A stretch of 56,020 nt of DNA, from the NCBI GenBank assembly GCA_018698915.1, contig JABIPN010000026.1, positions 1-56,020 on the forward strand, read 5' to 3'. The DNA is from Candidatus Woesearchaeota archaeon. GTDB taxonomy: Archaea; Nanobdellota; Nanobdellia; UBA10117; ARS21. The position numbers and the translations under genes were made by a program. The notes beneath the pieces were generated by a model, which did not search any database, had not been told where the DNA came from, and worked only from the letters and a program-made list of their open reading frames with translations. Positions 3,639 to 35,771 of the stretch are shown in pieces (position 1 is the stretch's first letter; every line of letters starts with the position of its first letter).

Positions 3639-3678
3639 AATCTCAACTCAGAGAGAAACTTAAAAAGATATTGTTAAG

Positions 3679-16720: not shown

Positions 16721-17166
16721 AATTTGTCCCATATATACAACCTTATTGATGACCAATTACCATCACTTGAACGATAGGCCAATTGTGCTGAAGCCAAATC
16801 CTGATTACCAAAATTAGACTTCAAATTTGTAATATTATTTCCACCAGCAGTACCTAATGCACCATCATTAATTGGATAACACACACTACTTGTTGAACAA
16901 TAATCTAAATCAAACTCTCGATAATCATCTACAAATCCTGAAACAAAATCTTCAATCAATCCCCAATCTTCTGACTCATATTCATTTATTATTTCATATT
17001 CAGCTAATGATCTTAATATATCAAACGCAAAATTTTCATTATATTCAACTGCAGAATTATCAAAATTATTATTCGAAGTATGCTGCATTCCGGTATACAA
17101 TAAAGAAACAAGTAACACTGCAAAAATTATTTCTATAAAATACATATATCCCCTTTTACCAATCAT
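16717..17166 (-). CDS. Type IV pilin-like protein (class III signal peptide)
   Basis: MIGKRG/YMYFIEIIFAVLLVSLLY N-terminus with Glu at +6. ATGA overlaps on both sides. Confidence 0.6.
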   Translation of the reverse strand: MIGKRGYMYFIEIIFAVLLVSLLYTGMQHTSNNNFDNSAVEYNENFAFDILRSLAEYEIINEYESEDWGLIEDFVSGFVDDYREFDLDYCSTSSVCYPINDGALGTAGGNNITNLKSNFGNQDLASAQLAYRSSDGNWSSIRLYIWDKL

Positions 17167-18242
17167 TTTGAAATTAATACAGTTATTTTTGAAACAAACG
17201 TAGGTCTAACATAAATATTATATGCTGAGTTTACGATTGTTTGATTAACTTGTTTTTTACCTCCAATAAACGTGTAAATTCTACCAAACTCACATTGATT
17301 CTGAGAACTATCTAACTGTTCTGCACCAAATTGTGATTTAGCCAAAGTATTATTACCTAAATAAATAGAATATTCAGTTCCAAGACTTGAGTTCTTAAGA
17401 TTCATATTTCGAATCATGATTAAGTTATTCTTTGTAACTACTTTATCAACATCAAAAAATGTTGCCCCACCAGTAGTCCAGACAGAATCCCAGCCAGCAA
17501 CCGAAGTATCATTAACCGTATACGCAATATAAACAATATCCTCATCATTACCTTCAATATTAAAATCAACACTAACTGTTGCACCATCAGTTCCATTACT
17601 AATAGTAACTAAGTCTCCAGAATCAAGACTAGAATTTTGAGTTCCAATTATGGTAGCATTAGGGAAGAAAAGTTTAGTTTCAAATCGAGAACCAATTTCA
17701 TTACTTCCTGCAGCAATTCCCAAAACATTATGTATGACATTATCAGCTCCAACACCTGAAGTTGCATTCATCCAAATTTGCGCTTTAGGAACACCACCAA
17801 AAGTAATCTTTTCTGAATAAATTGAATTAACATCAACACCAACAGCTTCATAACTTATAAGAAAACCTTCACCACGATTCAAATATTCAGTAAAATTTAC
17901 CATACTAACATTATTTATCAAAAAATCCAAAGCAGTATAATCAACTTCGTAACGATTCCCATTTGATATACCAAATTGCGTCCAATTTCCACGCAAACCA
18001 TCCATTGAAACTGACCCTCCAATAAAATTATTATAACTTGTTTTCCAATTACTTTCCAAAGGCGGACGGTCTACAACTTCTCGAAATAATCGCTTAGCAG
18101 ATTCACAAGCCAAGTCCGAATCAATCTTGTTTCCTTCAAAGGAAGTATGATGGATGGTAACTTTTATTACTCCAACTAAAATAATCATAAAGAAAAAAGC
18201 AACAATAATATATTCACCAACAACAGAACCCTTTTTCATCAA
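17163..18242 (-). CDS. Large type IV pilin-like protein (359 aa)
   Basis: MMKKG/SVVGEYIIVAFFFMIILVGV N-terminus with Glu at +5, as in bacterial pilins. The rest looks beta-rich and carries many sequons. Confidence 0.6.
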   Translation of the reverse strand: MMKKGSVVGEYIIVAFFFMIILVGVIKVTIHHTSFEGNKIDSDLACESAKRLFREVVDRPPLESNWKTSYNNFIGGSVSMDGLRGNWTQFGISNGNRYEVDYTALDFLINNVSMVNFTEYLNRGEGFLISYEAVGVDVNSIYSEKITFGGVPKAQIWMNATSGVGADNVIHNVLGIAAGSNEIGSRFETKLFFPNATIIGTQNSSLDSGDLVTISNGTDGATVSVDFNIEGNDEDIVYIAYTVNDTSVAGWDSVWTTGGATFFDVDKVVTKNNLIMIRNMNLKNSSLGTEYSIYLGNNTLAKSQFGAEQLDSSQNQCEFGRIYTFIGGKKQVNQTIVNSAYNIYVRPTFVSKITVLISK

Positions 18243-18277
18243 AAATAGAAAGCGTCCGGGATTGATAAAAACTATGT

Positions 18278-19423
18278 TTATTCTACAGTCACCATTGCGC
18301 TATGATGATATACTTCATTCTCATATTCGATAGTGGTACGTATTTGATATTGTCCGAGCTCTTGCGGAGGTTCCCACGCATATCTAAACTCTCCAACATT
18401 ATCCGTATACAATCCAATAGTATTACCATTAGGTTCAATTAAGGTAACAGTTGCACCAGACGCAGCACTTCCCTCAATAAACGCTTTTCCTGAGATTTGA
18501 ACATCACTACTCAAAGAAACCGTTGTAGGAAATACAGTTACTTCAACTGAAAGTGCAGTAGGAAATACAAAGAAGAAGAATATGAATATGCTTGCTGAAA
18601 CCATAACCAATACATGTTTAACTCCCGCAATTATTTTTTCTTCAGCAATTTGTCCCGCAATTAACCCTGCACACACAGCTTCAACTAAAGTCATAAGGAA
18701 GAATAAATTTCTAAAGTATTCAAGAGTTAAAGGAGCGCCTTGACTTTGAACAGTTACACCACTAAATGCACCAATTTGCTGAATATATAAAATTGGTGAA
18801 AGAATTTTATAGAGTGCAATAACTACTGCAATAAAAACAAAGAAAATAACATACATTATGATTATCTGTTGACGCATTATAGATTTCCGCTCAGCTTCCA
18901 TATCCTTTATCAAAGTAACATTTTCAGAAAGAGATCCTAATGTTTTTTTAATATCACCGCCGCTATGAAATGCTTCCAAAATAATTGTATTGATACGGCT
19001 AATCAAAACACTTCGCTTCAATTGCACAGTAAATTTACTCCAAGCTTTTGGGAAAGTTAATTTCCAAGACAACCAAATATTAAGTTGTTTTATGTATTTA
19101 GTCAATTTTCCATAATCACTTTTTGAAGCCACATCTATTGCTTGAGTGAGAGTCATTCCTGAAGACGCAGATTGAGCCAAATCTGATAAAAAATGAGGGA
19201 ATTTATCTTCAGCATCTTTAATCTCACGGAATTCAAAGAAACTAATTAACACTGAAGGCAAAATAACTAAAATAGTACCTATTGAAATTAAAGCAATAGT
19301 TGTAGTACTAGAAGCACCAAAGAAAAAAGCAAGCAATCCAATCAAAAAAGGAAATGGAAAAGCTACTGCTGTCCAAAAGATTCTTTTACTCCTAAAGTGA
19401 AACATTTTTTCTATTCGCCCCAT
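18278..19423 (-). CDS. T2SSF-domain pilus platform protein (TadC/FlaJ-like) with a C-terminal Ig-like extension
   Basis: One T2SSF-type domain (FPHFLSDLAQSASSGMTLTQAI ... GGDIKKTLGSLSENV) is flanked by TM helices. The last 90 aa or so (VTVFPTTVSLSSDVQISGKAF..GATVTLIEPNGNTIGLYTDNVGEFRY) resemble a CarboxypepD_reg/Ig-like beta sandwich. Confidence 0.7.
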   Translation of the reverse strand: MGRIEKMFHFRSKRIFWTAVAFPFPFLIGLLAFFFGASSTTTIALISIGTILVILPSVLISFFEFREIKDAEDKFPHFLSDLAQSASSGMTLTQAIDVASKSDYGKLTKYIKQLNIWLSWKLTFPKAWSKFTVQLKRSVLISRINTIILEAFHSGGDIKKTLGSLSENVTLIKDMEAERKSIMRQQIIIMYVIFFVFIAVVIALYKILSPILYIQQIGAFSGVTVQSQGAPLTLEYFRNLFFLMTLVEAVCAGLIAGQIAEEKIIAGVKHVLVMVSASIFIFFFFVFPTALSVEVTVFPTTVSLSSDVQISGKAFIEGSAASGATVTLIEPNGNTIGLYTDNVGEFRYAWEPPQELGQYQIRTTIEYENEVYHHSAMVTVE

Positions 19424-20280
19424 GGTGATGAACTCTTAATTATGATTATAAGCATAGCAGTCATTAAAGGCATACCAATAAATATAACTAAATAATGCAA
19501 AAGCTTAATTGCGCCAGTAGGAACGCCCCCAACCGCACCCATCAAACTAGATATGACAATAAAGAATACCGTACCAACAATTATTGCAGTAATATACATA
19601 TTCATAAGCAAAGTGAGCAGTTTACTAAAACTTTCTAACTTTCGGCGGTATTCATTTACAAAACCCTTTGATTTTTCTTCCAAATATTTAGGCAAATCAC
19701 CACCAACAGTTACACTATTTTTAATTCCACCCAAAAATTCAGTCCACTCAGGACTTGGACTCCGCATTATAGCTCTTTCAAGAACCTTTGGTAAATCCGT
19801 TCCTATTTTATTAACTTCATGATCAATTTTTTGAGCTTCTTCAGAAACTGCAGAATAATCTTTGAATTTCGCCAACATACCAAATACTTGCTGAGGATTA
19901 AAACCACTCTTAGCTAAAGTTGACATGTAAATAGACACAAAAGCTAACGAATTTGAAATTTTATCACGTTTCTCATGTATTTTAAAATTAGGATATAAGT
20001 AAGTAAAACCTGCTGCAAGAAATCCAATAAATATTGCAGCTAAAAGATTTATTATAACTCCAATAATACTAAATCCCAATACAATGAGTGTAATAAATAA
20101 TAGAAAAAGAAAGGTGACTGCAGCAGTCATAAGACCAACTGTAATAATAAATGATGCATAAGTTTCAACAGGCATTCTTATTCGAGCAGTCCTTAACTTA
20201 GGTTCTAATGCCCCAAAAAGATATTTATGTTTTTTTACAAATCCTGAAAATAATTGTGCAGATCGTTCATAAATATCCAT
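19411..20280 (-). CDS. T2SSF-domain pilus platform protein (TadB/FlaJ-like)
   Basis: 289 aa with a single T2SSF domain (SLAFVSIYMSTLAKSGFNPQQVF ... GGDLPKYLEEKS) and flanking TM helices. Its start codon overlaps the ATPase stop codon by 1 nt (TAATG junction). Confidence 0.75.
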   Translation of the reverse strand: MDIYERSAQLFSGFVKKHKYLFGALEPKLRTARIRMPVETYASFIITVGLMTAAVTFLFLLFITLIVLGFSIIGVIINLLAAIFIGFLAAGFTYLYPNFKIHEKRDKISNSLAFVSIYMSTLAKSGFNPQQVFGMLAKFKDYSAVSEEAQKIDHEVNKIGTDLPKVLERAIMRSPSPEWTEFLGGIKNSVTVGGDLPKYLEEKSKGFVNEYRRKLESFSKLLTLLMNMYITAIIVGTVFFIVISSLMGAVGGVPTGAIKLLHYLVIFIGMPLMTAMLIIIIKSSSPWGE

Positions 20281-21983
20281 TACTTACCCATCCTTTCATG
20301 AACTGATTGGGGATTAGTATAATATTGATTAAGAATCTTTGCAACATCATCAAATTTGAATATGTCTTTTTCCGACATCCACTTCAAAATATTAGCACGA
20401 CCCATTATCTCATGATTAATATCTTCAGAACTCATGTTATGTGTTTTTGCTATAGTAGATAATATGTAACTTTCATTCTTTGTAAATCCATCAGTGGCCG
20501 GATCCCAAACAATTGCATCATTTACTCGCAAATCTTTTTCTTTAGCATCAAAACTTTCAACTTCTACAACCTTGCCAACTCTACGTACAAATTTACCTTC
20601 ACGTTTAATTTTTTCTAAGAATATAACAATATCTAAATTTTGTAAAACTGACATTGGCAATTGAATTGGAGGTGTTGTTAATCGATCAATAACTGCATTT
20701 ACATTATCTGCGTGAATCGTGGACAAACCTGGATGTCCTGTTGCCATTCCTTGGAACAAAACATTAGCTTCAGCACCACGAACTTCCCCAACAACTAAAT
20801 AATCAGGTCTTTGACGTAATGCACTTCGAAGCAAATCTTCCATTTCAACACTACCATAATTGTTTGGACCAAAACCAGGTCGAGTAATTTGAGGTAACCA
20901 GTTTGTTTGAGGAAGTTTGAGTTCTGCAGTGTCTTCAATTGAAACAATTTTCAAAGTTGGATTAATAAACATACTCAAAACATTCAACAAAGTAGTCTTA
21001 CCCGTCGCAGTAGAACCAGCAATCAATATTGATTTTTCCTTCTCAATACAAAACCACAAATAAGCCAAAGTTATAGCATCAATTGTTTCATATTTAATCA
21101 AATCAACAGGACTTAATGGTTGAGCGAAAAATTTTCGAATTGTAAAATTACTTCCTCTACGTGAAATATCAGTTCCATAAGTAATCTGGACTCTACTACC
21201 ATCTTCCAATGAACCATCAAGTAAGGGATTTGCAACAGATACAGTTCGACCTGTTTTTTGAGCAAGTTTCATAACAAAAGAATCAAGAAGTTCCTTAGTT
21301 TCAAAAACAACATTTGTTGCCATTTCTCCATAAACAGGATTTCTATGGAAAATAAAAATTGGTAATCCAATACCGTCACAACTAATATCTTCAATATTAG
21401 GATCTTGCATAATTGCCTCAATTAAACCGTGACCTGCTGTGTCTTTAAAAATATAATATTTCATTTTCAAAGCATTTTCTGTTTTTGGAACAATATCTAA
21501 TTTTGACCAAATTTCATCAATTTTTTCATTTAGATAACCGTGCATCTCAGATTTACTATTAACATTCTCAAGTTTAATATCGAGTCTCTCATGCAATTCA
21601 TCTATAGTTCTAGTTACTATTTCTTGAGAATATTCATCTAATGTCGGTTCTACTAAATTATACTTCAAAGTATGGGATTCAGTATTAAATGCAATATTAA
21701 CATACGCAAGAGGTACGGACTGACCATTAAATTCAACATTAATCAAAGAATAAGTATCATTCACCTTTCTCAATTCTTCTACAAAATTAGAAGGGGCCTT
21801 CTTACTCAAAATATGTTCTTTAGGAAGCGAAATTCTTAACGTTTTTTCAACAACTTCTTCAACTTTAACTTCCGATTTTTTCTGTTGCACTGGTTGATCA
21901 ACATTTTCTTTTTCAGTAACCTGATTCGATTTATACTTCTTTGCAATTTTGTTCAAAAAGGCGCGAGAGCGAGGACCAGCCAT
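20280..21983 (-). CDS. Type IV pilus assembly ATPase (FlaI/PilB/VirB11 secretion ATPase superfamily)
   Basis: Walker A GSTATGKTT, Asp box SIEDTAEL, Walker B DYLVVGEVRGAEA and His box TGHPGLSTIHA. Confidence 0.9.
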   Translation of the reverse strand: MAGPRSRAFLNKIAKKYKSNQVTEKENVDQPVQQKKSEVKVEEVVEKTLRISLPKEHILSKKAPSNFVEELRKVNDTYSLINVEFNGQSVPLAYVNIAFNTESHTLKYNLVEPTLDEYSQEIVTRTIDELHERLDIKLENVNSKSEMHGYLNEKIDEIWSKLDIVPKTENALKMKYYIFKDTAGHGLIEAIMQDPNIEDISCDGIGLPIFIFHRNPVYGEMATNVVFETKELLDSFVMKLAQKTGRTVSVANPLLDGSLEDGSRVQITYGTDISRRGSNFTIRKFFAQPLSPVDLIKYETIDAITLAYLWFCIEKEKSILIAGSTATGKTTLLNVLSMFINPTLKIVSIEDTAELKLPQTNWLPQITRPGFGPNNYGSVEMEDLLRSALRQRPDYLVVGEVRGAEANVLFQGMATGHPGLSTIHADNVNAVIDRLTTPPIQLPMSVLQNLDIVIFLEKIKREGKFVRRVGKVVEVESFDAKEKDLRVNDAIVWDPATDGFTKNESYILSTIAKTHNMSSEDINHEIMGRANILKWMSEKDIFKFDDVAKILNQYYTNPQSVHERMGK

Positions 21984-22013
21984 GGAGAATTTAATATTCC
22001 AATCTATAAATAT

Positions 22014-22502
22014 TTACTGGCTAGCAAATTTCAGGCCCGCACTCGTATTATATTCCAGAATATATTCACCATTTGATGAGAAAGCATAAGATTTGATTAC
22101 GGGAAGCTTAGTATTTATTTGTTTGATAAAGAGAACACCCACAGATCCAAATTTACTTGAGCCCTGACGTGAAACAACAAGTTCAGGATCACTTAAAAAA
22201 GCGCTAGCAGAATTATTAAGTCCACTAGCTCTCAAAGAAATAGAATAAAGATCAGTGCCAATATGATTGGGAATATTGTTACGTATTCTAAATATTGTTT
22301 CAGAAGTATTTTCATAATTATTCTCAATAAAATAAATATCAGATTCAACTTTTTCAATCAAAAGATTGATTTGCTCTTCAGCCAAAAATTCAGAATTTGT
22401 ATCTCTAACATTCATACTCCAAATCAAAACTAATGCGAATATAGCAACACTAATCACTGTTAGGATTCCCAAATAAATTGCACTAATTTGACCTCGTTTC
22501 AT
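22014..22502 (-). CDS. Type IV pilin-like protein (class III signal peptide)
   Basis: MKRG/QISAIYLGILTVISVAIFALVLIW N-terminus. 4-nt overlap with the upstream gene. Confidence 0.6.
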   Translation of the reverse strand: MKRGQISAIYLGILTVISVAIFALVLIWSMNVRDTNSEFLAEEQINLLIEKVESDIYFIENNYENTSETIFRIRNNIPNHIGTDLYSISLRASGLNNSASAFLSDPELVVSRQGSSKFGSVGVLFIKQINTKLPVIKSYAFSSNGEYILEYNTSAGLKFASQ

Positions 22503-23104
22503 GTTATATCAATTTTAACTACTGGTTTATTTATTGTTGGACATGAAGTTTCAGCAGTAGTATTTGAATAATCATAAGTAAGTAAAATACTATGTTTTCC
22601 TTTACCCGCACCAGTATTATCACCAAGCCCAAGTCTAATTCCAACACATTCATTATTTACTGTATCATTCAACAACGGAAAATATATTTGATAAACAATC
22701 GCACCTTGTTTTGTAATACAACTAGAGGTATCAGTTCCAACAACACCAATTCGACTACTGTTTAGACAAGAACCACCTGAAGTTTTATTATATCCTTTAA
22801 CCACAATTCGTTCCCCACTCATACTTGGTAAATTCACAATACTCGTAAATTCAATAGTTGCATTATTTTTCACTCGCAAAAATCCTTTATCAATATCAAA
22901 ATTAATACTTCGTTGAGTTTGCTGAGTTGCAACTTCATGAATTGCATTATCCAACATTCGCAAGTTCGATTCCATTCTAGAAACCTCATTTATATTATTT
23001 GATCTTTCAATCAAAGGATTTGCCCAAAAGAAAACTATTGCAGTAACCGAAAGCATGATTAAAGTTAGTAAAGTAAATCCAATAATCTGCGCTTGACCTT
23101 TCAT
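22499..23104 (-). CDS. Type IV pilin-like protein (class III signal peptide)
   Basis: MKG/QAQIIGFTLLTLIMLSVTAIVFFW N-terminus, four Cys and several sequons. It abuts the upstream gene with no spacer. Confidence 0.6.
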   Translation of the reverse strand: MKGQAQIIGFTLLTLIMLSVTAIVFFWANPLIERSNNINEVSRMESNLRMLDNAIHEVATQQTQRSINFDIDKGFLRVKNNATIEFTSIVNLPSMSGERIVVKGYNKTSGGSCLNSSRIGVVGTDTSSCITKQGAIVYQIYFPLLNDTVNNECVGIRLGLGDNTGAGKGKHSILLTYDYSNTTAETSCPTINKPVVKIDIT

Positions 23105-24967
23105 TTAACTAACCTCCGTTGAATTAACTTCTGAACTTACACCAGTACTCTTTGTGAAAATCTCTAGTTTTTCAAAATATTTACCATTCGCAGTTTTTAC
23201 AGTAAATTTAGTACCTGGAGAATATTTACTTATATCACAACTACTATCTTCAATTGAAATATTCAATAAAGTACAATCACCTTTCTTAAGAATCTGATTA
23301 CATCCCGTTACACAAGCCGGCTGTCTTTCAGTACAAGCAGTATATGAAAATAGTTTTTGAACTTCAGGATAAGTATTATCTTGATAAACTCGAGTTTCAC
23401 TTAAGAAATTACCGTTGCCAGAATTAATATTAAATTTAGTAATTGTACCATGCGTTCCATTAGTCCCCCCAAGATATAGATTATCACCTAAAAAATCAAA
23501 AGTTAAGGGGTTGACTCCGGAACCTACAGGCGGACTTATCAATTCCGCGTTATAATTACCTTCGCTATCACGAATTCCTATCACTTGAAATCCTGGAGCA
23601 CCAATTCGCGCAGTAAGAAATAACATAACTTGATTACTATTTTGATGATATTTCATTTCAACAATATTATATGATGGATCTACTCCCGCAGTCATCAAAT
23701 CAATACAATGCAGTTCTGTGTTTTCTTGATTTTGACCGGTCCAAAAAACAGAAGGAAATTTATTACCACTACTATTTGTTAAGTTATTTATTGCAATAAA
23801 TATAGGATCACTGTTAACTTTACTACTATTTGTAAACTCAGGAACATGTAACATTGCAGGAACCCCTTCAATAGTTAAACCACAACCAACAGGATCAATA
23901 GTAATTCCACATTGAGAAAAAGAGGGAATATCATAAGGACAAACTGTTCCAGGATTCTCATAATTAACTTCTATACCTACAGTGAGATCTTGAGTCTCAT
24001 CAATAAATGGTGCAGCACCCTCATCCAAACTACCAGTTGTACCAATAAGCAATTGAGTTTGTCCCATTCTAACTATTTCCCGAAGTGCAGTAACTTTAGA
24101 ATTTACAATATTACGTCCACCTAATCCGAAGCCAGTCAAACGCTCAGGAACATCATAAGCTGCAAACTGCTTGGTAATAATTGCAGTTTTTGGATCTCCA
24201 AGTAACGGATCAGTAAGTGCACCACCTCTAAATAATGATAAAGAGACACCGGGAATTTCTCTTACCATTTCTGCACTATGGAAAATTGTAACATTCTCAT
24301 CTAAATCCGTAATACCATAACTATTTCCTTTCAAAGTTCTATCAAGAACTGAAAGAATGGCTTTTCGTGACCCTGCAGGTTTGGCTACAGTACCCATAAG
24401 TAACATATTTTCAGGATTTCGAGTAGAATTTCCTCGCTCATTAAATCCATCCAAATAAGTAAAATTAAACAAACTATAGCTATTATATTCTGAACTTATT
24501 GAAGAAGTAGTCCAATTTCCACCATCAGTTGAAGACACAGTATACATTCCCGTTACTGAAGCACTAGATCCTCCAAGAACTCCGAAGAGCGTAGTAACAT
24601 TTGTGTTACATTCTCCACTAAAATCTCTTACAGCACAAATCAATTCAGTTCCAGCACCATATCCTTCATAAATTTCAAGACGGAGTTCATCTGCTGCAAG
24701 ATTTATAGATTTTTCATCAGCACAAATTTGAGTTACGTACTCAGCAAAATTATTTATATTAACTTCACGATTTACACTATATGCGGCATCAATTAATGCG
24801 GAAGTTCTACTATTAATTTGATCAAAAACATTGGTTTGATGCATTTCAGCCTGAATTTGAGCATCATCTTGCCCAGAAGAATACCAATAAAAGAAACTAC
24901 CTGCAGCAACCATTACCATCACAATTAATAAAATAATACTTACAACTTCAGAAACACCCTTTCTCAT
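23105..24967 (-). CDS. Giant pilin-like protein (620 aa): pilin N-terminus, a large inserted domain and a pilin-type Cys module; candidate tip adhesin
   Basis: N-terminus MRKG/VSEVVSIILLIVMVMVAAGSFFYWY. The C-terminus (ACVTGCNQILKKGDCTLLNISIEDSSCDIS) repeats the Cys motif of the small pilins. About 450 aa lie in between. Confidence 0.65.
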   Translation of the reverse strand: MRKGVSEVVSIILLIVMVMVAAGSFFYWYSSGQDDAQIQAEMHQTNVFDQINSRTSALIDAAYSVNREVNINNFAEYVTQICADEKSINLAADELRLEIYEGYGAGTELICAVRDFSGECNTNVTTLFGVLGGSSASVTGMYTVSSTDGGNWTTSSISSEYNSYSLFNFTYLDGFNERGNSTRNPENMLLMGTVAKPAGSRKAILSVLDRTLKGNSYGITDLDENVTIFHSAEMVREIPGVSLSLFRGGALTDPLLGDPKTAIITKQFAAYDVPERLTGFGLGGRNIVNSKVTALREIVRMGQTQLLIGTTGSLDEGAAPFIDETQDLTVGIEVNYENPGTVCPYDIPSFSQCGITIDPVGCGLTIEGVPAMLHVPEFTNSSKVNSDPIFIAINNLTNSSGNKFPSVFWTGQNQENTELHCIDLMTAGVDPSYNIVEMKYHQNSNQVMLFLTARIGAPGFQVIGIRDSEGNYNAELISPPVGSGVNPLTFDFLGDNLYLGGTNGTHGTITKFNINSGNGNFLSETRVYQDNTYPEVQKLFSYTACTERQPACVTGCNQILKKGDCTLLNISIEDSSCDISKYSPGTKFTVKTANGKYFEKLEIFTKSTGVSSEVNSTEVS

Positions 24968-25015
24968 AAAACTAACAATATGTTTTCGTTAATATAATTT
25001 ACTAGTAATAGACAA

Positions 25016-25546
25016 CTACTTCCCAAATGCACCACCAGCAGTTGAATGACCACTGAAATCCAATTCAAACATAAAGTCAGTATTATTTGTATAAGTTGTA
25101 AGGCTACAATCGCTTGATAAACTCATTGCAATTTTTTGTGTTTCACCTATATCAATAGAATCTCCGCATCCAGCACTACAACTTGCATGAGAACTATCTA
25201 AATATGTTGAACATATAACTTTTCCACCAGCTTCCTGCAAAGTAAATGTAGTGGTGGGGTGACTTGAACCAGTCTCAACAGGAATATCTGTTCCACCTTC
25301 ATTTTTAACATATAAATTCAATGTACTTCCATCTAAATCAGCTACAATTATTCCTGCACGAGTACTAATTGTTTCAGCCAAATTACTTGAATGACTTTCA
25401 GAGCCACCCTGAAGTTCACTCTGCATCCTTACAAACCAGAAAAAAGCAGCACCCGCAGCTGCAACTGTCATCATCATAAGTAAAATAACTGCGATAATCG
25501 GAGTTATTCCTTTCTTGTTCCGCTTCCCAATTTTTCTTAATTTCAT
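25016..25546 (-). CDS. Archaeal type IV pilin (Pilin_N/DUF1628-type N-terminus), major pilin candidate A
   Basis: MKLRKIGKRNKKG/ITPIIAVILLMMMTVAAAGAAFFW is the archaeal pilin N-terminal domain pattern. The globular part carries C..C..GCG....C. Confidence 0.8.
   Translation of the reverse strand: MKLRKIGKRNKKGITPIIAVILLMMMTVAAAGAAFFWFVRMQSELQGGSESHSSNLAETISTRAGIIVADLDGSTLNLYVKNEGGTDIPVETGSSHPTTTFTLQEAGGKVICSTYLDSSHASCSAGCGDSIDIGETQKIAMSLSSDCSLTTYTNNTDFMFELDFSGHSTAGGAFGK
25436..25546 (-). repeat. 111-bp pilin 5' cassette, copy 1 (partner at 28679-28789)
   Basis: 110 of 111 nt are identical to 28679-28789 by direct comparison. It covers codons 1-37 of the pilin gene. Confidence 0.9.
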
Positions 25547-26082
25547 ATTTCAAATTGTCCTTTTAGCGGAGTGACTCCACTAAGCGTAATATCTACAGCA
25601 ACCGTTGAACCATTACTCTGACTTGATATATCACATTCACTATTTGTTAAATTTAATTTAATTGTCCGACTATCTTTCAGCACCAAATCTGAACCGCAAC
25701 CAGAAAGACACTTAGTATCATTAGTACCATCACCATCTGAATCTAAACCACTCCAATCTGAATTACAAAGTATGTCTCCATCACTATTTGTTAAAGTCCA
25801 AACAGATTTTGGACTATTTCCCGAATCAGAAATTGGTATTTTAGTAGTTCCAGTATTTAATGCAACAATTTGCAAAATCTCAGAAGTCCGATTATAACTT
25901 GAAGTTTGCCAAATTACTGAAGAAGTCATGGCTTCAAAAGTTGAATCTTGGTGCGCTTGAGTTCCACCTTGCAGTTCGCTTTGGATTCTCACTAGCCAAT
26001 AAAAACTAGAACCGGCAGCAGCAACAGTCATCATTAATAGAAGAATCATTGCAACAACCGGAGTCAGACCTTTCTTTGACAT
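25543..26082 (-). CDS. Archaeal type IV pilin (Pilin_N/DUF1628-type N-terminus), major pilin candidate C; first gene of the operon
   Basis: MSKKG/LTPVVAMILLLMMTVAAAGSSFYW N-terminus. It has the same Cys pattern, and a TATA box lies 23 nt upstream of its ATG. Confidence 0.8.
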   Translation of the reverse strand: MSKKGLTPVVAMILLLMMTVAAAGSSFYWLVRIQSELQGGTQAHQDSTFEAMTSSVIWQTSSYNRTSEILQIVALNTGTTKIPISDSGNSPKSVWTLTNSDGDILCNSDWSGLDSDGDGTNDTKCLSGCGSDLVLKDSRTIKLNLTNSECDISSQSNGSTVAVDITLSGVTPLKGQFEI

Positions 26083-26105
26083 ATGATTTAGAAAAAAGGT
26101 TTTTC

Positions 26106-26113
26106 TATATAAA
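26106..26113 (-). promoter_or_regulatory. TATA box (TTTATATA on the minus strand) for the pilin operon
   Basis: Its centre is about 27 nt upstream of the ATG at 26082, which implies a leaderless or near-leaderless transcript. Confidence 0.4.
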
Positions 26114-28243: not shown

Positions 28244-28789
28244 TTACTTATCGAAATCAGCACCAGTTCCTGCTTGTCCACCAAAATCTAATTCGAAATT
28301 AAAAGTAGTACCGTTTGGATAAGTTGTAGCATTACTAATATCACAGTTAGTTGACAAGTTTACAATAATCATCTTTTGAGAACCAACATCCAGATTACTA
28401 CCTCCACAACCAACAGTACAATTTGCAGAAACACTACCAAATGTTTCACTACAAATAAGCTTGCTATTGCTATCCTTCAAAAGTATATTAGTGGTAGGAC
28501 TCACAGTAGTACTGGTCAAAGTTATAGGAATACTACCTGTATTTTGAAGTATTAAAGTGAAATTTCCATTGTCAATATATTGAGAATGAATCACATCAAC
28601 CATAGAATTAATATTACTACTTAATGTTTCAGAATGTTGTTCTGAACCGCCTTGAAAACTAGATTGCATTCTAAGCACCCAGAAAAAAGCAGCACCTGCA
28701 GCTGCAACTGTCATCATCATAAGTAAAATAACTGCGATAATCGGAGTTATTCCTTTCTTGTTCCGCTTCCCAATTTTTCTTAATTTCAT
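28244..28789 (-). CDS. Archaeal type IV pilin, paralogue B (outside the main operon)
   Basis: The first 37 aa are identical to pilin A (25016-25546), then the sequence diverges. It has the same C..C..GCG....C pattern. Its stop codon abuts the thermosome stop codon (TAATTA). Confidence 0.8.
   Translation of the reverse strand: MKLRKIGKRNKKGITPIIAVILLMMMTVAAAGAAFFWVLRMQSSFQGGSEQHSETLSSNINSMVDVIHSQYIDNGNFTLILQNTGSIPITLTSTTVSPTTNILLKDSNSKLICSETFGSVSANCTVGCGGSNLDVGSQKMIIVNLSTNCDISNATTYPNGTTFNFELDFGGQAGTGADFDK
28679..28789 (-). repeat. 111-bp pilin 5' cassette, copy 2 (partner at 25436-25546)
   Basis: Same as copy 1. The single mismatch is C versus T within GCACC(C/T)GCAG. Confidence 0.9.
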
Positions 28790-29013
28790 TCCAAAAGTCT
28801 CCTAATTCTTGCAAGCATAATAACTGCAACAAAAAGGATAACACTAATGACTCCAAGAAAGAAAGTGCTTAATGAAGTCCAACTCAACAAACTTAATTCT
28901 AAATTTGCAGCTTTCGAAGTCAAATATATTACTGAAACGATCCAAAAAGTTAAGCTAGCCAAAAGAACTTTCTCAGTCATATCTGGACGTTCAACTCTTT
29001 TCTTGCGAATCAT
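28786..29013 (-). CDS. Small two-TM membrane protein, translationally coupled to pilin B
   Basis: 75 aa with two hydrophobic helices. An ATGA overlap joins it to the pilin start. A TATA-like TTTTTATACA (minus strand) lies about 21 nt upstream of its ATG. Confidence 0.5.
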   Translation of the reverse strand: MIRKKRVERPDMTEKVLLASLTFWIVSVIYLTSKAANLELSLLSWTSLSTFFLGVISVILFVAVIMLARIRRLLE

Positions 29014-29087
29014 AATTAGTAATACTCAAAGATGTATAAAAAAGTATTGTAAGAAATATTTATATTGTCCAGACGATATTCAAATCC

Positions 29088-29597
29088 ATGTCAGAAACGA
29101 TAAACCTAATTACAAATGCCAAAGTATCAAAAAATGATTTCATATTTGATTTCAGAGAATTATATGGACACGCCGAAGACTGGTTAAAGTGGAGACAATT
29201 CACAGTTATTGAAACAAAATACGTGGAGAAAGTTGGCCCAACTGGAAAATCATATGAAATACATTGGCTAACAAATAGAGCTATTGATTCATATTCTCAA
29301 TATAATATTGATGTTATTTGGACTATTTCTGACATGAATGATATCGATGCAGAAATTGAGGGGAAAAAATTAATATTGCAAAAAGGATCAATTAACTTCG
29401 ATATGAGTGCGTATTTAGTTGTTGACAAAGAAGATAAATGGTCAAACCAACCATTCCTCAGACTCTTCAAAGAATTTTATGAAAAGTTTATTTACAAAAG
29501 CACCCGAAAGCAAATGCAAGGAGAGTTGTGGCAAGTTGCAACGGAGTTGCAGGCAGAAGTTAAATCCTTCCTTGAACTTTACCGGTATAATCAATGA
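29088..29597 (+). CDS. Hypothetical cytoplasmic protein, first gene of the adhesin operon
   Basis: 169 aa with no signal peptide or TM helix. An ATGA overlap links it to the downstream giant gene. The TATA-like element AAATATTTATATTG lies about 25 nt upstream. Confidence 0.55.
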
Positions 29598-32224
29598 GAT
29601 CAGCTAAAAGCAAATTCAGCGGCGGAATTCTAATTATATTTTTAGTATTTTCTTTAATAGCAACATTCTCGATTGCAACAGCAGACAGTACGGAGGATGG
29701 TTGGAATAGTGATTCCGATGGAGATGGAATGTGGGATGCTGAGGACAATTGTCCAAATTCTCACGGCGGAGACAACTCAATAAATGGCTGTCCGGACGAT
29801 GATGGAGACGGAGTACCAAATCATGAAGATGCATTTCCAAATGATCCAAACGAGGATGCAGATCAAGACAATGATGGAATTGGAGATAATGCTGAGGGAA
29901 GAGGAAGCGGTGCAGAAGATCATCGAGATTCCGATGATGATGGAACGGCAGATTATCGGGACGATGATTCCGATAATGACGGCATCCGTGATTTTATAGA
30001 AGGAGATGAAGATGAAGATGACGACGGAACTCCAAATTATTTAGATTCAGATTCCGACAATGACGGCATCCCGGATTCAGTAGAAGGCGATGAAGATGCC
30101 GACAGCGACGGAATTCCAAATTTTCTAGATACTGATTCTGACGGCGACGGTTACGATGATGAAACCGAAGATGGTCATGACAGTATAGACGCAGATGGTG
30201 ATGGAATTCCCGATTATCTTGACACGGACTCCGACAACGACGGATTATCAGATGCAGATGAAAAAGATAAAGGCACTGAAAGAACTGAAGAAGATTCAGA
30301 TATGGATGGCTTAACAGACGGAGACGAAGTTAATATTTATGGAACCAATCCAATTATACAAGATACTGACGGTGATGGATTGACTGATGGAGAAGAAATA
30401 AATGGAATGAGTAGTGGATCAGAAATGTATACTTCTAATCCCTTAAGTAAAGATTCAGATGGTGACGGATTGGAAGATAACGAAGAAATTCAAGGATTTA
30501 AAAGCTTTGAAGACGTAGAATATTCTGATTTTTGGTATATTTATACAGATCCGAGTAGCGCAGACACAGATGAAGATGGATTAACCGATTATGAAGAAAT
30601 TAGTATAGCTAATTATCATATTACAAATCCAATTATACCAGATACTGACGGTGATGGAATAAAGGATGGTTTAGACAACTGTCCCGGAGAAATTAATGCA
30701 GACCAAAAAGACCTTGATGGAGACGGCATTGGAACTGAATGTGATCCAATCGAGCTTGTCTTCAAAATTCATCCTAAAGATGATGATACTATAACAGAAG
30801 GGCCATATCTTTTTAATGAAGAAATTACATTTTCAGCGGAAGAGTCATACTCATTTGGACAAAAACTTTCTGAAGGCGGAATCGCAACTATTACTTGGAT
30901 ATTTCCCGATGGAACGCTTAGTGACTTTGATGGAACTGCTGATGCAACTGCCGGAACTGAAAAGGATTTAACTTTTGAAAACAGTGGTATTTACAAAAGC
31001 AAAATAGAAGGAAGCTGTGTGCCAATGACGACAGCAGGCGATGGAAGCCTGCCATCTCCACCATCATATGCATTCTATAGGAACAAGGTTGACTGCACAG
31101 TTACAGAAGAGATAGAATTCGAAGTAGAAATCACCAACGGACTTTACGCAGTAATTTCAAAACCGACAGCAGGAATTACAATACAACCAAACCAACAACT
31201 ACTCTTCGAAGAAGATTCATATTCAACAGGAGAACCTATTGATTCATGGATAATTGATTTCGGAGATGAATCCCAACCTTATGGATATTTATCATTCGAT
31301 CAGCAATACAAATGCTATAGTTCAACAGTGGCAACACAATTCTGTAGCACAAATATATTAACCGTTGGCGGAAATTTTGAAGATGGCGCAGCATGTGGTT
31401 GCGGAGATTATACTACAGAAATTTTCCCAACTACCGTAGTTGATATAACTAATTTTGCAGGAAGAAAAACAGGTCATACTTACGAGTCACTTGAATCTTG
31501 TGGAGATGATTTCATTTGTACAGTAACTCTAACAGTCGGAGCCGATTCAGACGACGACGGAACAATTGATTTCACTTCTTCAACAACATTAGACTTACCT
31601 TTCAGTGAAATTTCAGTCTGTTCAGAATTTCCAACTGCCGCAATTTGTACAACGGGTGAATTAAATTTAGATAATGTCTGTGAGCGAGCACCAGAATTAG
31701 AAACATGTCAAGATGATGCAAATATCCCTCCAAATAACCTAACTGGTGGAAATTTCACAAACGAAACAAAAAATTTAGATACTCTTGATCCAAAGATTAC
31801 AGGACAAGAGAGTCATGTTTCTAAAAATACAGCAAATAAGAAACAGTACAGTGATCCATTAGATAACGTGAAGAATGCACAAGGTACAGGAACTGGTGGA
31901 AAAGATAAAGGATCTTCGGGAGCCGGAACAATTTTAGTAATTATAATACTCCTTTCAGCAATTGGTGGACTTGGATTCTATTTCTGGAAGAAAGGAATGT
32001 TTGATGGTTCAAAATCAAAACCGCCATCAACAGACACATTTGAAGCAACACCTGAAACTACAAAATCAGAACCTGAGCCCGCGAAAGAAGAAAAACCAGA
32101 TTCAAGTTCAGAAATACAAGCCTATATAGACAAGGCCAAAGTAGCAGGAGAATCTAATGATCAAATGAAAGAAGGACTCAAAGCAGCAGGCTGGCCAGAT
32201 TCTGAGATTAACAAGTATCTGTAG
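29594..32224 (+). CDS. Giant acidic surface protein: signal peptide, about 18 thrombospondin type 3-like Ca-binding repeats, PKD-like modules, a C-terminal TM anchor and a cytoplasmic tail
   Basis: Repeated DxDxDGxxDxxE/D units ([29 protein letters not shown]). PKD-like ITWIFPDGT and [10 protein letters not shown] helix [19 protein letters not shown] followed by KKG. Confidence 0.8.
29700..30740 (+). repeat. Coding array of degenerate TSP3-like (DxDxDG) repeats
   Basis: GAT/GAC/GGA-rich periodic sequence. It also produces the spurious ORFs at 29634-29849 and 29784-29999. Confidence 0.7.
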
Positions 32225-32258
32225 CAATTATTATAAACTTCTGAGCTTATTTGTTTAC

Positions 32259-35200
32259 ATGATCAGAAAGCTCTTTGTTGTATTGATGTTGCTCGTTTTA
32301 TTACCTTCCGTGTTAGCACCAGTAGATTCCAATGATTGGGATGGAGATGGAACTACTAATACCAATGACCAGTTTCCTTTAGACCGCGCAAGAGCAACAA
32401 TCAGTGATGGCACAGATCATTTCAATTCTGCAAAGATTGAAGAGATTATAGAACCAAAGACATCTTATTATTATTATTATAATATAAAATTATTTGATGG
32501 CGACAATCCTCGTTTGGACATTGGATATCTGACAAATCCAGGAGAATTGTCAAGGGCGAATCTTTTAGAATGGGATACAGCATTAGGTGAAAATCAATAT
32601 GTTCCCTTATTCGAATTCGGAAAGCGAGATTCTAGCTTTTTTGAAGGGGAAATAATCGGAACAAAGGATGAAATTACATTAATTTATGATGATAGAATTG
32701 ATTATTATATCAGCGATAAATCAAAATCTTACACCTCTCAATATCATACTTCTCTACATAACTTTCCTGCTGACGGTGGCGAACCGAGCTTTTACTACGT
32801 TCAAAGTTTTGAAATAATAGACATAGATTCAGATGGAAGTTTGGAATTAGTTGTTATTTCAAGACGGAAAAATAGCGGAGGTGCAGAACGTGGAGACGGA
32901 TATCATTTTATGTTGGTTTTAAAATCCACAGGACAGAACGATAACCTTTTTTGGGATGACCCAACTATGTACAAAATACCTAACTATGTGGAAAATATAA
33001 CTTTCATTTCTCCAGATACTTTCATTTGGATAAATCCTATTGATAAATGTATTAATTCGGCGGACGAAGTCGAGGAGTCCAATTCCGAACTTCCATATTC
33101 ATCTAAGTCTATTGTAAGTTACTATACCTGCACGTATACAGCTTCTGATTCTAATCTTGTTCCCAACCGGTGGATAGCTGCTTATCCTGAACAAACTCTA
33201 AGAAAATACAAACTAAATTATAATATTTATCCTACCTGGGACATAGATGAGGAGACGGATATTTATTCTGAGATGGATAATGTGCCTAGCACCGACATGA
33301 ATATAGATTTATCTCACGTTGAAGACGTATCCAAAGATTATATTCTTGCTAGCAACCAAGATAAATCCAAACTATATTTATACAATCATAATCTCGCATT
33401 AAAAAAACAATTTAATATAAACTTTGTTGATGCAAAGTTTGGATTAATCAATAATGACGAAGAGATGGATATCATAGTCAGTGAAGCGTGTTCCTCAACT
33501 TCTTCGAACAGGGGAAAAAATTTGAAGGTATATTTTGGTGAAGGAAATTATGATTTCACTGAATTTACAGTTGAAAATTCCGAGCTAAATGATTGTGTCC
33601 AAGAACTCAGTATTGGAGACGTAGATCGCGATGGCACTGAAGATATTGTATTATCAAACTCTGATCCTGATTCATTTTATCAATCAAACTCTCTACTTAT
33701 TTTATTTAATCCAGGAACTCCCTCCGTAGAACTTTTACCTTCCGAATTAGACGCAGATGGTGATGGAATTACTAATGATCTTGATGAATGTGATGATACT
33801 CAAGTCACAACCGTAAATTCTGTTGGTTGTCCCGACGCAGATCAAGATGGAATTAAAGATGAGTCAGACAACTGTCCAGATACTCCTACTGACGAGACTG
33901 TATCTACTTCAGGATGTTCAAATTTACAACTAGACTTTGATGCAGATGGAGTACTGAATGATATCGATGACTGTCTTCTAACTGCGGGTGGAACAGATAC
34001 TGACGAAGACGGATCTGCTGGAATCAATGGCTGTCCTGACGATGATGGAGACAAAATACCAAACTCAGCAGATTTATGCCCCGGAACAGTTGAAAATATA
34101 GTCGAAGATAATGGATGTTCAAATGAACAAAAATCAGAAATTATAATAAGCTCTAACAGAAAAGCAGGAGTTCCAATCACTGGAATAATAAGAAACTTGG
34201 GTGAAGATATTAATGGATTTTTTTCATATTTCGACAAAAAAATTGATATAGTTTATTGGTTCAATGGAATAAAAGAAAATAAGCAAATAATTAATGATGC
34301 TGGAACTCTAATCTGTGCTGAATCGTTAGATGATACAAATGCATGTAATGTGTATAGCGGAAACAGAATAGCTATAACAATTGATTATGAATCATCAAAT
34401 AATATTGTAGAAGAAGATTTGGATTGTTCTTGTCTTACTCCAAACTATTATAGTCATGAAATACCGATGGAATTCAAACTCAATCCAGCAGGTGTTTCTA
34501 CACAAAATTCAATAGATGAAACGTTCATTAATAGTTATTTGCTGGATGAATGTAAAACTTTCGGAGCAGTACAGATAAAACTTAAGAGATTAAGTGATGA
34601 TCCAATAATCCCTGATTTGACCTCTGGAGGCGCAGTAGCAGATCCATCAGATGAAGATAGTGATATGGATGGAGTTAATAATGTGGACGATTTATGCCCA
34701 TTAGAAGCTGCAGCCTCAGACACGAATAATGATGGATGTGAAGACGTACAATGCACAATAAGTGCAATGATATTCTACAAAAATAATAATCCCAAATTAT
34801 TAACACCAGTAAACTTCTTCCTTCTTCCTTCAGATGCTCCTGACGAAGCGCTAGAAACACCAACAAACGAAGAAGGAGAAGAAAGTCCCTTTGGAGTTTA
34901 CTCACAATCTTGTGAATATGGAAACACTGGAGAAAGAATTGAAGGATCAGAATGGTGTTGTATTCCAGGATATCTTGCAAAAGAAGTTGGAGCACTAAAT
35001 TCTCTTAATCCAAACGAAGCAGCATGTACTCAATATGAAAATAAAATACCAAGCGCAGTTATTTCAACAAATGTAACTAACATCTCCATCGGAGAAACAA
35101 TAACTTTCGATGCAAGTTCATCAAGAGATTCAGATGGAATAATAAAAGAATATATTTGGACTTTCGGAGACGGCTCACCGAAAGAAACAGGAGAAACAGT

Positions 35201-35771
35201 AGATCATAAATTTGAAACAGCATGCGCTCAAGATATCTGCATAATTACATTAAACGTAAAAGACAATTTCAATAATATTGGAGAAGAAACTATAACTTTG
35301 AACATGACTAATATTATAATTTCAGATGATAAAGAAGATGATAAAGAAGATGACAAAGAAGAAGATGACGATTCAGAAACAGTAGATGCAGGTGCCGAAA
35401 ATGACGGAACGGGCGGAGGATATGATTGGGGAGCTCCAGGCGCAGGAGAGGATGAAGATGACGGAACAAAAGGTAGCGCAGCAGGATGGCTTATAATCAT
35501 AGCAGTATTAGCACTAATGGGTGGAGCATATTTCGCATTCAAGAAAGGACTTTTCAGCAAAAAGAAAGAACCAGAACCAATTGATTTAGACTCAGAAACG
35601 TTTGAAGCAGAAGAACCAGTCAAAGAAAAGAAAGATACTGGAAAAATGTCTGGTTTTATCTCAGATCAGAAAGACAAAGGACTTTCAAATGAAGAAATTA
35701 GACAAAAACTACTTGGAAAAGGACTAAGCGATGACGAAGTAGATAAACACATGAATAAGTCCAGAGAATAA
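32259..35771 (+). CDS. Giant surface protein: signal peptide, FG-GAP/VCBS-like repeats, TSP3-like repeats, a PKD domain, an acidic linker, a TM anchor and a cytoplasmic tail
   Basis: FG-GAP-like IIDIDSDGSLELVVIS, FGLINNDEEMDIIVSE, IGDVDRDGTEDIVLSN. TSP3-like DADGDGITNDLDECDD, CPDADQDGIKDESDNCPD. PKD-like ITFDASSSRDSDGIIKEYIWTFGDGS. TM helix WLIIIAVLALMGGAYFAF followed by KKG. Confidence 0.8.
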   Translation: MIRKLFVVLMLLVLLPSVLAPVDSNDWDGDGTTNTNDQFPLDRARATISDGTDHFNSAKIEEIIEPKTSYYYYYNIKLFDGDNPRLDIGYLTNPGELSRANLLEWDTALGENQYVPLFEFGKRDSSFFEGEIIGTKDEITLIYDDRIDYYISDKSKSYTSQYHTSLHNFPADGGEPSFYYVQSFEIIDIDSDGSLELVVISRRKNSGGAERGDGYHFMLVLKSTGQNDNLFWDDPTMYKIPNYVENITFISPDTFIWINPIDKCINSADEVEESNSELPYSSKSIVSYYTCTYTASDSNLVPNRWIAAYPEQTLRKYKLNYNIYPTWDIDEETDIYSEMDNVPSTDMNIDLSHVEDVSKDYILASNQDKSKLYLYNHNLALKKQFNINFVDAKFGLINNDEEMDIIVSEACSSTSSNRGKNLKVYFGEGNYDFTEFTVENSELNDCVQELSIGDVDRDGTEDIVLSNSDPDSFYQSNSLLILFNPGTPSVELLPSELDADGDGITNDLDECDDTQVTTVNSVGCPDADQDGIKDESDNCPDTPTDETVSTSGCSNLQLDFDADGVLNDIDDCLLTAGGTDTDEDGSAGINGCPDDDGDKIPNSADLCPGTVENIVEDNGCSNEQKSEIIISSNRKAGVPITGIIRNLGEDINGFFSYFDKKIDIVYWFNGIKENKQIINDAGTLICAESLDDTNACNVYSGNRIAITIDYESSNNIVEEDLDCSCLTPNYYSHEIPMEFKLNPAGVSTQNSIDETFINSYLLDECKTFGAVQIKLKRLSDDPIIPDLTSGGAVADPSDEDSDMDGVNNVDDLCPLEAAASDTNNDGCEDVQCTISAMIFYKNNNPKLLTPVNFFLLPSDAPDEALETPTNEEGEESPFGVYSQSCEYGNTGERIEGSEWCCIPGYLAKEVGALNSLNPNEAACTQYENKIPSAVISTNVTNISIGETITFDASSSRDSDGIIKEYIWTFGDGSPKETGETVDHKFETACAQDICIITLNVKDNFNNIGEETITLNMTNIIISDDKEDDKEDDKEEDDDSETVDAGAENDGTGGGYDWGAPGAGEDEDDGTKGSAAGWLIIIAVLALMGGAYFAFKKGLFSKKKEPEPIDLDSETFEAEEPVKEKKDTGKMSGFISDQKDKGLSNEEIRQKLLGKGLSDDEVDKHMNKSRE

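Follow-up and report, generated by a model that had tools for sequence, protein, structure and literature searches.

The 56,020-nucleotide (nt) stretch analyzed here (hereafter the window), from contig JABIPN010000026.1 of a Candidatus Woesearchaeota archaeon (assembly GCA_018698915.1), carries three neighboring genes, A169, B876 and C1170, that encode a small cytoplasmic protein and two very large surface proteins. Judged by comparison with related loci, B876 and C1170 (hereafter B and C) are a hypervariable island with sharp borders, one where A169 meets B and the other at the 3' end of C. We read the locus as a polymorphic, Ca2+-dependent adhesin cassette for attachment to a host or to particles, and give this reading a probability of roughly 55%. 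The three genes are:

29088-29597, + strand: A169, an open reading frame (ORF) of 169 amino acids (aa)
29594-32224, + strand: B, an 876-aa ORF with an ATGA overlap with the A169 gene
32259-35771, + strand: C, an 1170-aa ORF that begins after a 34-nt gap behind B

We consider all three to be real genes because the ORFs are unusually long for DNA of 33-38% GC, have orthologues, and show ratios of non-synonymous to synonymous substitution rates (dN/dS) of 0.04-0.36. Overall GC is about 33%. Genes of archaeal type flank the locus (thermosome, DnaG-type primase, CCA-adding enzyme, NFACT, SMC/ScpAB and an Asp-tRNA synthetase-like protein), and the relatives of A169 come from marine metagenomes, Tara included, and from metagenome-assembled genomes (MAGs) titled Woesearchaeota or Nanoarchaeota. 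The host is a marine Woesearchaeota/Nanoarchaeota (DPANN) archaeon.

To describe the variability we compared the window with contigs and loci from relatives (numbered L001 to L053; L018 is a Tara contig). Between the window and L018, the flanking genes share 80-91% protein identity and 79-93% nucleotide identity, with dN of 0.03-0.12, and A169 shares 89% protein identity (dN 0.058). For B, the protein identity is 71% (dN 0.149). C is only 37% identical over its first 765 aa, with values of 4-50% per 50-aa segment between aa 51 and 650; the nucleotide identity in its head is 39-58%, and its dN is 0.434 overall and reaches 0.77 in the head. Toward the C-terminus the similarity returns, with 72-80% protein identity in the PKD region of C and 95% in its tail.

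The boundaries of the island are sharpest in pairs of closely related loci. For instance, L015 and L007 have an identical small membrane protein (100%) and A169 proteins that are 96% identical. Their nucleotide identity is 83-98% upstream, falls to 24-34% exactly at the start codon of B, stays at 46-72% through B and C, and is 96% directly after the stop codon of C. This comparison is also summarized as 90-98% upstream and 24-58% across B and C. The same profile is seen between L044 and L053, where nucleotide identity runs from 96% to 43% and back to 93% across the cassette. Among the 15 complete B proteins compared, several pairs from loci with 95-100% identical A169 have heads without detectable similarity. 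Conversely, the type of head found in B of the window recurs in L051 and L053 (28-30% identity over 78-85% of the length), where A169 is only 37-41% identical. Because the heads do not follow the relatedness of A169, we conclude that head types are shuffled across lineages and not inherited with the genome. C1170 has four matches among 5.8 billion proteins, the best being the L018 orthologue. Moreover, 21 public contigs (including contigs of 89, 58, 40, 33 and 25 kb) end at most 1.6 kb after A169, and nine further contigs begin in or just before A169.

Two systems known for diversified proteins were considered and rejected. A diversity-generating retroelement was ruled out because no direct repeat resembling a template repeat/variable repeat pair and involving the region at 29-36 kb was found within the 56-kb window; among the ORFs scanned, which cover 16-52 kb of the window and not the part upstream of 16 kb, there is also no reverse transcriptase. 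A polymorphic toxin system does not fit either: conservation is highest at the C-termini, it is the N-terminal part that varies, and the gene downstream is DnaG, with no immunity-like gene.

Although the heads differ, the anchors of both proteins are constant. A domain of ~40 aa, detected with a hidden Markov model (HMM) of the tail, ends 15 out of 15 complete B and 8 out of 8 complete C orthologues, and stalk, transmembrane helix and tail persist in all 23. The B-type tail follows the motif IQ.[FY]I..A..AGE[ST]ND......L...GWP..EINK[FY]L and the C-type tail the motif F[IV]S.QK..G[LY]S..EI...L...G.S..E[VI]D; AlphaFold2 (AF2) predicts three helices. Membrane-proximal Cys-rich modules are kept as well (QQYKCYSS...CGCGDY...CTVTLTV in B; WCC.PGY...C, followed by the PKD domain, in C). 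B and C of the window share 28% identity across their last ~230 aa, and at the sequence level the two are paralogous over the anchor. The tail also occurs on a third membrane protein, conserved in the same position with orthologues in L015, L018 and L019:

39061-39429, + strand: 122-aa protein with two transmembrane segments and a B/C-type three-helix tail at its C-terminus (tail HMM, E = 5e-8)

No family could be assigned to the tail domain. RecX_HTH1 and Pex14_N were matched below the cutoffs in searches of Pfam and PDB, and the likeness to DotG repeats and designed helical bundles is at the level of motifs only; all were rejected.

We read the topology of B and C from hydropathy and the positive-inside rule. 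Features of B are:

aa 1-30, + strand: signal peptide made up of a basic n-region and hydrophobic core, with the site A-T-A
aa 40-384, nt 29711-30745, + strand: head of TSP3-like repeats of the Ca2+-binding type (motifs, TSP3_bac)
aa ~385-770, + strand: Cys-rich conserved stalk (identity profiles)
aa 778-798, nt 31925-31987, + strand: transmembrane helix (hydropathy), followed by a Lys-rich (KK-rich) stretch and a 78-aa tail
aa 837-876, nt 32102-32221, + strand: three-helix tail domain (tail HMM)

And those of C are:

aa 1-20, + strand: signal peptide (hydrophobic N-terminus)
aa ~21-490, + strand: FG-GAP-like hypervariable head (FG-GAP_3 on the N-terminal segment)
aa 498-609, + strand: TSP3-like repeats (DxDxDG motifs)
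aa ~620-930, + strand: Cys-rich module
aa 928-1008, + strand: PKD domain (PKD_4, 49.5 bits, cutoff 27; PKD, 29.3 bits, cutoff 23.5)
aa 1023-1038, + strand: acidic DDKE linker, DDKEDDKEDDKEEDDD, encoded by a 12-nt tandem repeat
aa 1074-1094, + strand: transmembrane helix (hydropathy), followed by a KK-rich stretch and a 76-aa tail
aa 1130-1166, + strand: three-helix tail (AF2 helices; predicted local distance difference test, pLDDT, 65-72)

Much of what the first-pass annotation had proposed for these genes from the letters alone agrees with this description. The ORF coordinates bear out its three co-directional genes, with an ATGA overlap and then a 34-nt gap. Both large proteins are, as it had stated, acidic type I membrane proteins: each has a signal-like N-terminus, a single C-proximal transmembrane segment with positive charge behind it, and an isoelectric point (pI) of 4.05. 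For B, the signal peptide, anchor (aa 778-798) and 78-aa tail were recovered by hydropathy, and for C the linker, anchor and 76-aa tail, the additional TSP3-like repeats and the clear PKD domain all hold.

Other details had to be corrected. B was said to contain about 18 DxDxDGxxDxxE repeats; tandem DxDxDG loops are indeed present (19), but only 13 of the 19 fit the extended form DxDxDGxxDxx[DE]. The protein is 24% D+E, has 16 cysteines and matches TSP3_bac at 32.4 bits (Pfam cutoff 25). C has 8 DxDxDG motifs and 26 cysteines. The canonical TSP_3 model stays under its cutoff of 25 in both window proteins (19.5 bits in B, 20.7 bits in C). The two PKD-like modules proposed for B did not survive, as there is one PKD_4 match only, at 17.1 bits against a cutoff of 27. 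Of the FG-GAP/VCBS repeats proposed to form an integrin-alpha-like propeller in C, the evidence is mixed. When the whole protein is scanned, FG-GAP_3 reaches 26.1 bits (cutoff 26.9) and FG-GAP 21.6 (cutoff 22.1), both just short; when aa 20-500 are scanned alone, FG-GAP_3 reaches 39.4 bits over two stretches (aa 188-199 and 391-465). FG-GAP-like repeats are thus probably present, and the AF2 model, with a pLDDT of 28, speaks neither for nor against a propeller. We also noted a 42-nt segment of B (29779-29820) that is 88% identical to a segment of C (34022-34063), which indicates that a TSP3-like unit was exchanged or duplicated between them.

The heads differ in type between loci:

B head with TSP3_bac: the window, L018, L051 and L053
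B head with nothing recognizable: the other loci
C head, FG-GAP-like: the window and L018
C head with eight TSP_3 repeats: L019 (83.4 bits, 8 stretches)
C head with Big_9 and cadherin-like domains: L007, L047 and L053
C head with nothing recognizable: L015 and L044

All recognizable modules are of adhesion type, and most are of Ca2+-dependent kinds. The mix of TSP3, FG-GAP and PKD modules seen in the window does not define the locus: it is one of many head variants, and the heads of orthologous loci are quite different. L019 has in addition an extra gene between B and C (2672-4183 of that contig), coding for a 503-aa secreted protein without a transmembrane anchor, tail domain or family match.

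A169 has no hydrophobic segment and is a conserved cytoplasmic alpha+beta protein, translationally coupled to B. Its AF2 model (pLDDT 86) runs from a strand through a helix and four long antiparallel strands to a C-terminal helix of 43 residues. An exhaustive profile search retrieved a family of 1342 clusters at 50% identity, nearly all of them stand-alone proteins of 160-180 aa, and all members with a name belong to DPANN (Woesearchaeota, Pacearchaeota, Nanoarchaeota or 'DPANN group'). Broad alignments of the family have no conserved stretch. Among 57 diverse members there was no sequence match in Pfam or PDB, and NCBIfam gave none for the family. Foldseek comparison of the model with PDB and BFVD returned nothing at E < 1e-3 except one BFVD match with a TM-score of 0.16. 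The topology is similar to that of SRPBCC/helix-grip and hotdog-like folds, and the top Foldseek matches were PYL, PRELID/Ups1 and START proteins (TM-score ~0.2) and Cyt/volvatoxin (0.39). With a best E of 3e-3 and TM-scores of 0.2-0.39, membership in the SRPBCC/helix-grip, hotdog or Cyt-toxin groups was rejected.

A second Woesearchaeota clade has the A169 family in the form of two or three translationally coupled paralogues arranged in tandem. In five of its loci (L023 and L025-L028) these lie directly downstream of genes for large secreted or membrane-anchored proteins with immunoglobulin (Ig)-like domains and an acidic ~67-aa protein, and in L024 they have no large neighbor at all. Adjacency to surface-protein genes recurs in this clade, whereas the tail domain is not found alongside the family there. 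Three of the large secreted proteins (L023 5825-8368, L025 7244-8389 and L028 2-2449) share the C-terminal motif EVEEEVC.F+..W.C.W......KKI..P, and the very acidic ~67-aa protein follows the large protein in L023 and L025-L027. Two matches to the family came from contigs binned as bacteria. L016, a 2-kb contig in a Marinoscillum sp. bin, carries a family fragment with 37% identity over aa 97-166 and is probably a mis-binned DPANN contig. The match in L017, from a Campylobacterota MAG, lies within an ABC permease gene and was discarded as a false positive.

These results suggest the following model. In marine Woesearchaeota-type DPANN archaea the locus is a core module of the cell surface, kept in synteny: it always lies between the thermosome and DnaG genes, beside the type IV pilus locus, and the pilin and the 75-aa membrane protein described below are part of this conserved neighborhood. 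B and C are paralogous type I membrane proteins in which the head varies and the anchor stays constant. This anchor consists of a Cys-rich, beta-rich stalk (with the PKD domain in C), a low-complexity linker, the transmembrane helix, a basic juxtamembrane stretch and a cytoplasmic domain of three helices and ~40 aa. In the window, the predicted heads comprise ~19 TSP3-type DxDxDG loops in B, and FG-GAP-like blades with TSP3 loops in C. The whole B-C cassette is swapped between strains for deeply diverged alleles, and many head types are therefore found on otherwise near-identical genomes. As Ca2+-stabilized adhesins, the proteins may bind a host cell or particles, and changing hosts, viruses or grazers may have diversified their specificity. 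Since its stop codon overlaps the start codon of B, A169 is made together with B; it might act, with low confidence, as an adaptor on the cytoplasmic side or as a helper in export or assembly. The first-pass annotation had considered it a possible chaperone or tail-binding partner.

Although we favor the adhesin reading, several observations weigh against it. Ca2+ binding by the heads is predicted purely from motifs, and many heads have no recognizable domain. The full-length AF2 model of C, built on a 3-sequence alignment, has a mean pLDDT of 28, with short strands between aa 178 and 482. With dN/dS below 1 and dS saturated (~1 between the window and L018), the substitution rates do not demonstrate positive selection. 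Repeat-rich DNA alone could account for some of the breaks in contigs near A169. Finally, the A169 paralogues of L023-L028 lack B/C-type partners and tail domains, so the link between A169 and the tail is not general. Adhesion itself, the binding target and the role of A169 are points that we infer. That the locus is a host or particle attachment system beside a pilus locus had already been proposed in the first-pass annotation. The adhesion-type modules and the adjoining type IV pilus locus make adhesion a reasonable proposal, but the particular module mix is not what defines the locus. One could go further and regard the five-gene module (75-aa protein, pilin, A169, B and C) as a DPANN-specific host-docking system, in which exchangeable, Ca2+-dependent heads would set the host cell that a marine Woesearchaeon can dock to, while the tails (also on the third small membrane protein) and A169 would form an intracellular half coupling attachment to the pilus machinery or to the uptake of host material. 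We hold this extension to be unlikely. If it were true, one could read the host range of an uncultured lineage from its allele classes.

The main rival to the adhesin reading is a surface-layer (S-layer) role. In this case B and C would be the S-layer or main envelope scaffold, a membrane-anchored pair like SlaA/SlaB, and their variability would reflect escape from viruses that use the envelope as receptor. In favor of this role, every relative has the locus at the same core position, and its products are large, acidic, beta-rich and anchored at the C-terminus. DPANN S-layer proteins are undetermined and poorly conserved, the candidates having Ig/PKD folds together with a transmembrane segment at the C-terminus (bioRxiv 10.1101/2023.10.27.564410), and S-layer genes are among the top-expressed genes of Woesearchaeota (PMC11606122). 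Neither B nor C, however, matches an S-layer family in Pfam or NCBIfam. Classical S-layer proteins are poor in cysteine, whereas B has 16 and C 26 cysteines, and N-glycosylation sequons are depleted in both (3 in B, with 7.5 expected; 5 in C, with 12.7 expected). The head modules are moreover of adhesion type (TSP3, FG-GAP, cadherin-like), and the swapping of unrelated folds as whole heads between near-identical strains is hard to fit with conserved lattice contacts. Taken together, we judge an S-layer role to have a small chance of being correct. Should B and C instead build the lattice of the envelope, the group's S-layer, unknown so far, would be identified through this locus.

Recognition of kin, or of self and non-self, would also produce discrete, deeply diverged allele classes on near-identical backgrounds. 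Here the heads would bind like heads on sibling cells, as in Myxococcus TraA/TraB or in the role proposed for VARTIG of Thermococcales, and the tail and A169 would relay the contact inward. A tail domain conserved on three membrane proteins would suit such a relay, archaea offer a precedent for the idea of a hypervariable Ig module (PMC8416519), and TSP3 repeats mediate local matches to the Myxococcus proteins TraB, MtsC and CglD. These NCBIfam matches, however, are far below the cutoffs and come from the TSP3 repeats only; neither TraA (no PA14 domain) nor the VARTIG proteins are homologous to B or C, nothing points to homotypic binding, and DPANN biology favors heterotypic contact with a host. 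We regard kin recognition as quite improbable. A different question is whether A169 has anything to do with B and C. It might be a housekeeping-like DPANN protein that marks the edge of the island, its overlap with B being ordinary packing in a compact genome. The family is large (1342 clusters) and often present as tandem paralogues without B/C-type neighbors or tail domains, and four-nucleotide overlaps are common in the window (for instance, 19411/19423 and 22499/22502). Yet A169 is tightly coupled to B in every marine locus examined, across 37-100% A169 identity, and in the second clade the family is again found directly beside large secreted Ig-like proteins. A functionally unrelated A169 is therefore conceivable but doubtful.

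No description of the B-C/A169 module was found in our literature searches. Hypervariable surface adhesin loci are already known as a kind; what stands out here is that a cassette is replaced between sharp bounds, that its anchor and tail are conserved, and that the A169 family lacks annotation. Fast-evolving surface proteins rich in non-synonymous single-nucleotide polymorphisms were reported earlier in Nanoarchaeota (PMC6142677), and a role in interactions between cells was proposed for such hypervariable archaeal surface proteins (PMC8416519, PMC6142677). Like B and C, the VARTIG proteins of Thermococcales (PMC8416519) and the surface proteins of Nanoarchaeota (PMC6142677) are large and beta-rich, with recognition parts that vary sharply, apparently by recombination. 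In VARTIG, however, a C-terminal Ig domain and downstream genes are variable, while for B and C the variation falls on the N-terminal head or takes in the entire cassette. No homology to VARTIG was seen, and the B-C module has conserved parts of its own (the A169 family, the tail domain, the pilin and the 75-aa protein).

The individual modules also have known counterparts. Proteins with TSP3 or TSP3_bac repeats (PF02412, PF18884; Myxococcus CglD, MtsC and TraB) have, like B and C, tandem DxDxDGxxDxxD loops, some with NCP...CD cysteines; B and C differ in being archaeal and anchored as type I membrane proteins with a cytoplasmic tail, and in them the repeats are dispensable, being absent from many orthologues. 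The FG-GAP propeller of integrin alpha resembles C in its FG-GAP_3 matches with a DxDxDG cation-binding motif in sequence predicted to be rich in beta-strands, but C has 2 detected repeat stretches only, and no integrin-type partner subunit or cytoplasmic motif. SlaA and SlaB of Sulfolobales are likewise encoded by two adjacent genes for large envelope proteins and follow the logic of a membrane-anchored stalk. B and C differ from them in that both are anchored by a transmembrane helix, Cys-rich and depleted in sequons, with adhesion-type modules and no sequence similarity.

The locus offers a concrete, alignable handle on the hosts and means of attachment of uncultured marine Woesearchaeota-type DPANN archaea. 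With its conserved frame (A169, the anchor, the tail and the DnaG side) as a guide, the cassette can be retrieved from any metagenome, and the allele classes of the variable insert within that frame can be correlated with co-occurring organisms. Two uncharacterized elements recur beyond the window: the ~167-aa family with >1300 clusters and the ~40-aa tail domain on three membrane proteins.

Upstream of A169, the window contains:

16076-26082, - strand: archaeal type IV pilus locus, with a PilB-like T2SSE ATPase, two PilC/T2SSF proteins, pilin-like genes and a 620-aa pilin-like protein (Pfam, NCBIfam)
28244-28789, - strand: 181-aa type IV pilin/archaellin-like protein with a class III signal peptide (TIGR02537, 39 bits, cutoff 20; Arch_flagellin, 30.7 bits, cutoff 29.5)
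28786-29013, - strand: 75-aa protein with two transmembrane segments, always preceding the pilin gene
29014-29087, no strand: divergent intergenic region of 74 bp; a TATA-like box lies ~25 nt upstream of either start codon (two boxes, read by eye)

The pilus locus that had been proposed as a neighbor is therefore real, with the T2SSE ATPase, two T2SSF proteins and pilin-like genes lying on the minus strand at 16-26 kb. The gene order is the same in all relatives: type IV pilus locus (minus strand), thermosome, a 72-75-aa protein, one or more pilin-like genes, A169, B, C and DnaG. The 75-aa protein has no match in Pfam or NCBIfam, and its orthologues of 72-75 aa are present in L001, L004, L007, L015 and L018, those of L015 and L007 being 100% identical. 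All five genes, starting with that of the small membrane protein and ending with C, point the same way in L004, L007 and L015 and have 4-nt overlaps. The 75-aa and pilin pair of the window, and likewise that of L001 and L018, is inverted with respect to these loci and diverges from A169. The earlier notion of an operon of three genes is thus right in order and strand, but the conserved unit has five genes. A single transcript for the three genes is not certain, because a TATA-like box, read by eye, lies inside the 34-nt gap before C. The two boxes in the divergent intergenic region may be promoters for leaderless or short-leader transcripts.

We considered an invertible, site-specific pilin segment and rejected it; the flanking inverted repeat measures only 17 nt at 82% identity, and we treat the inversion as a fixed rearrangement. 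The pilin of the module is linked to those of the pilus locus because they have a 5' repeat family of 158 nt in common: the first 158 nt of the module pilin are 87% identical to those of the pilin gene at 25389-25546. The family comprises the 5' ends of the pilin-like genes at 25389-25546, 25949-26106 and 28632-28789, with 87% and 61% identity to the reference copy. A 96-aa ORF (28847-29137, + strand) overlaps the start of A169 and runs antisense to the 75-aa gene, which is conserved; it matches no family and is most likely spurious. Further downstream, a 1003-aa ORF (49371-52382, + strand) has no Pfam or NCBIfam match, and the segment at 55395-56020 holds a 245-nt direct repeat (85% identity) with a nested 68-nt unit spaced ~190 nt, which reaches the end of the window.

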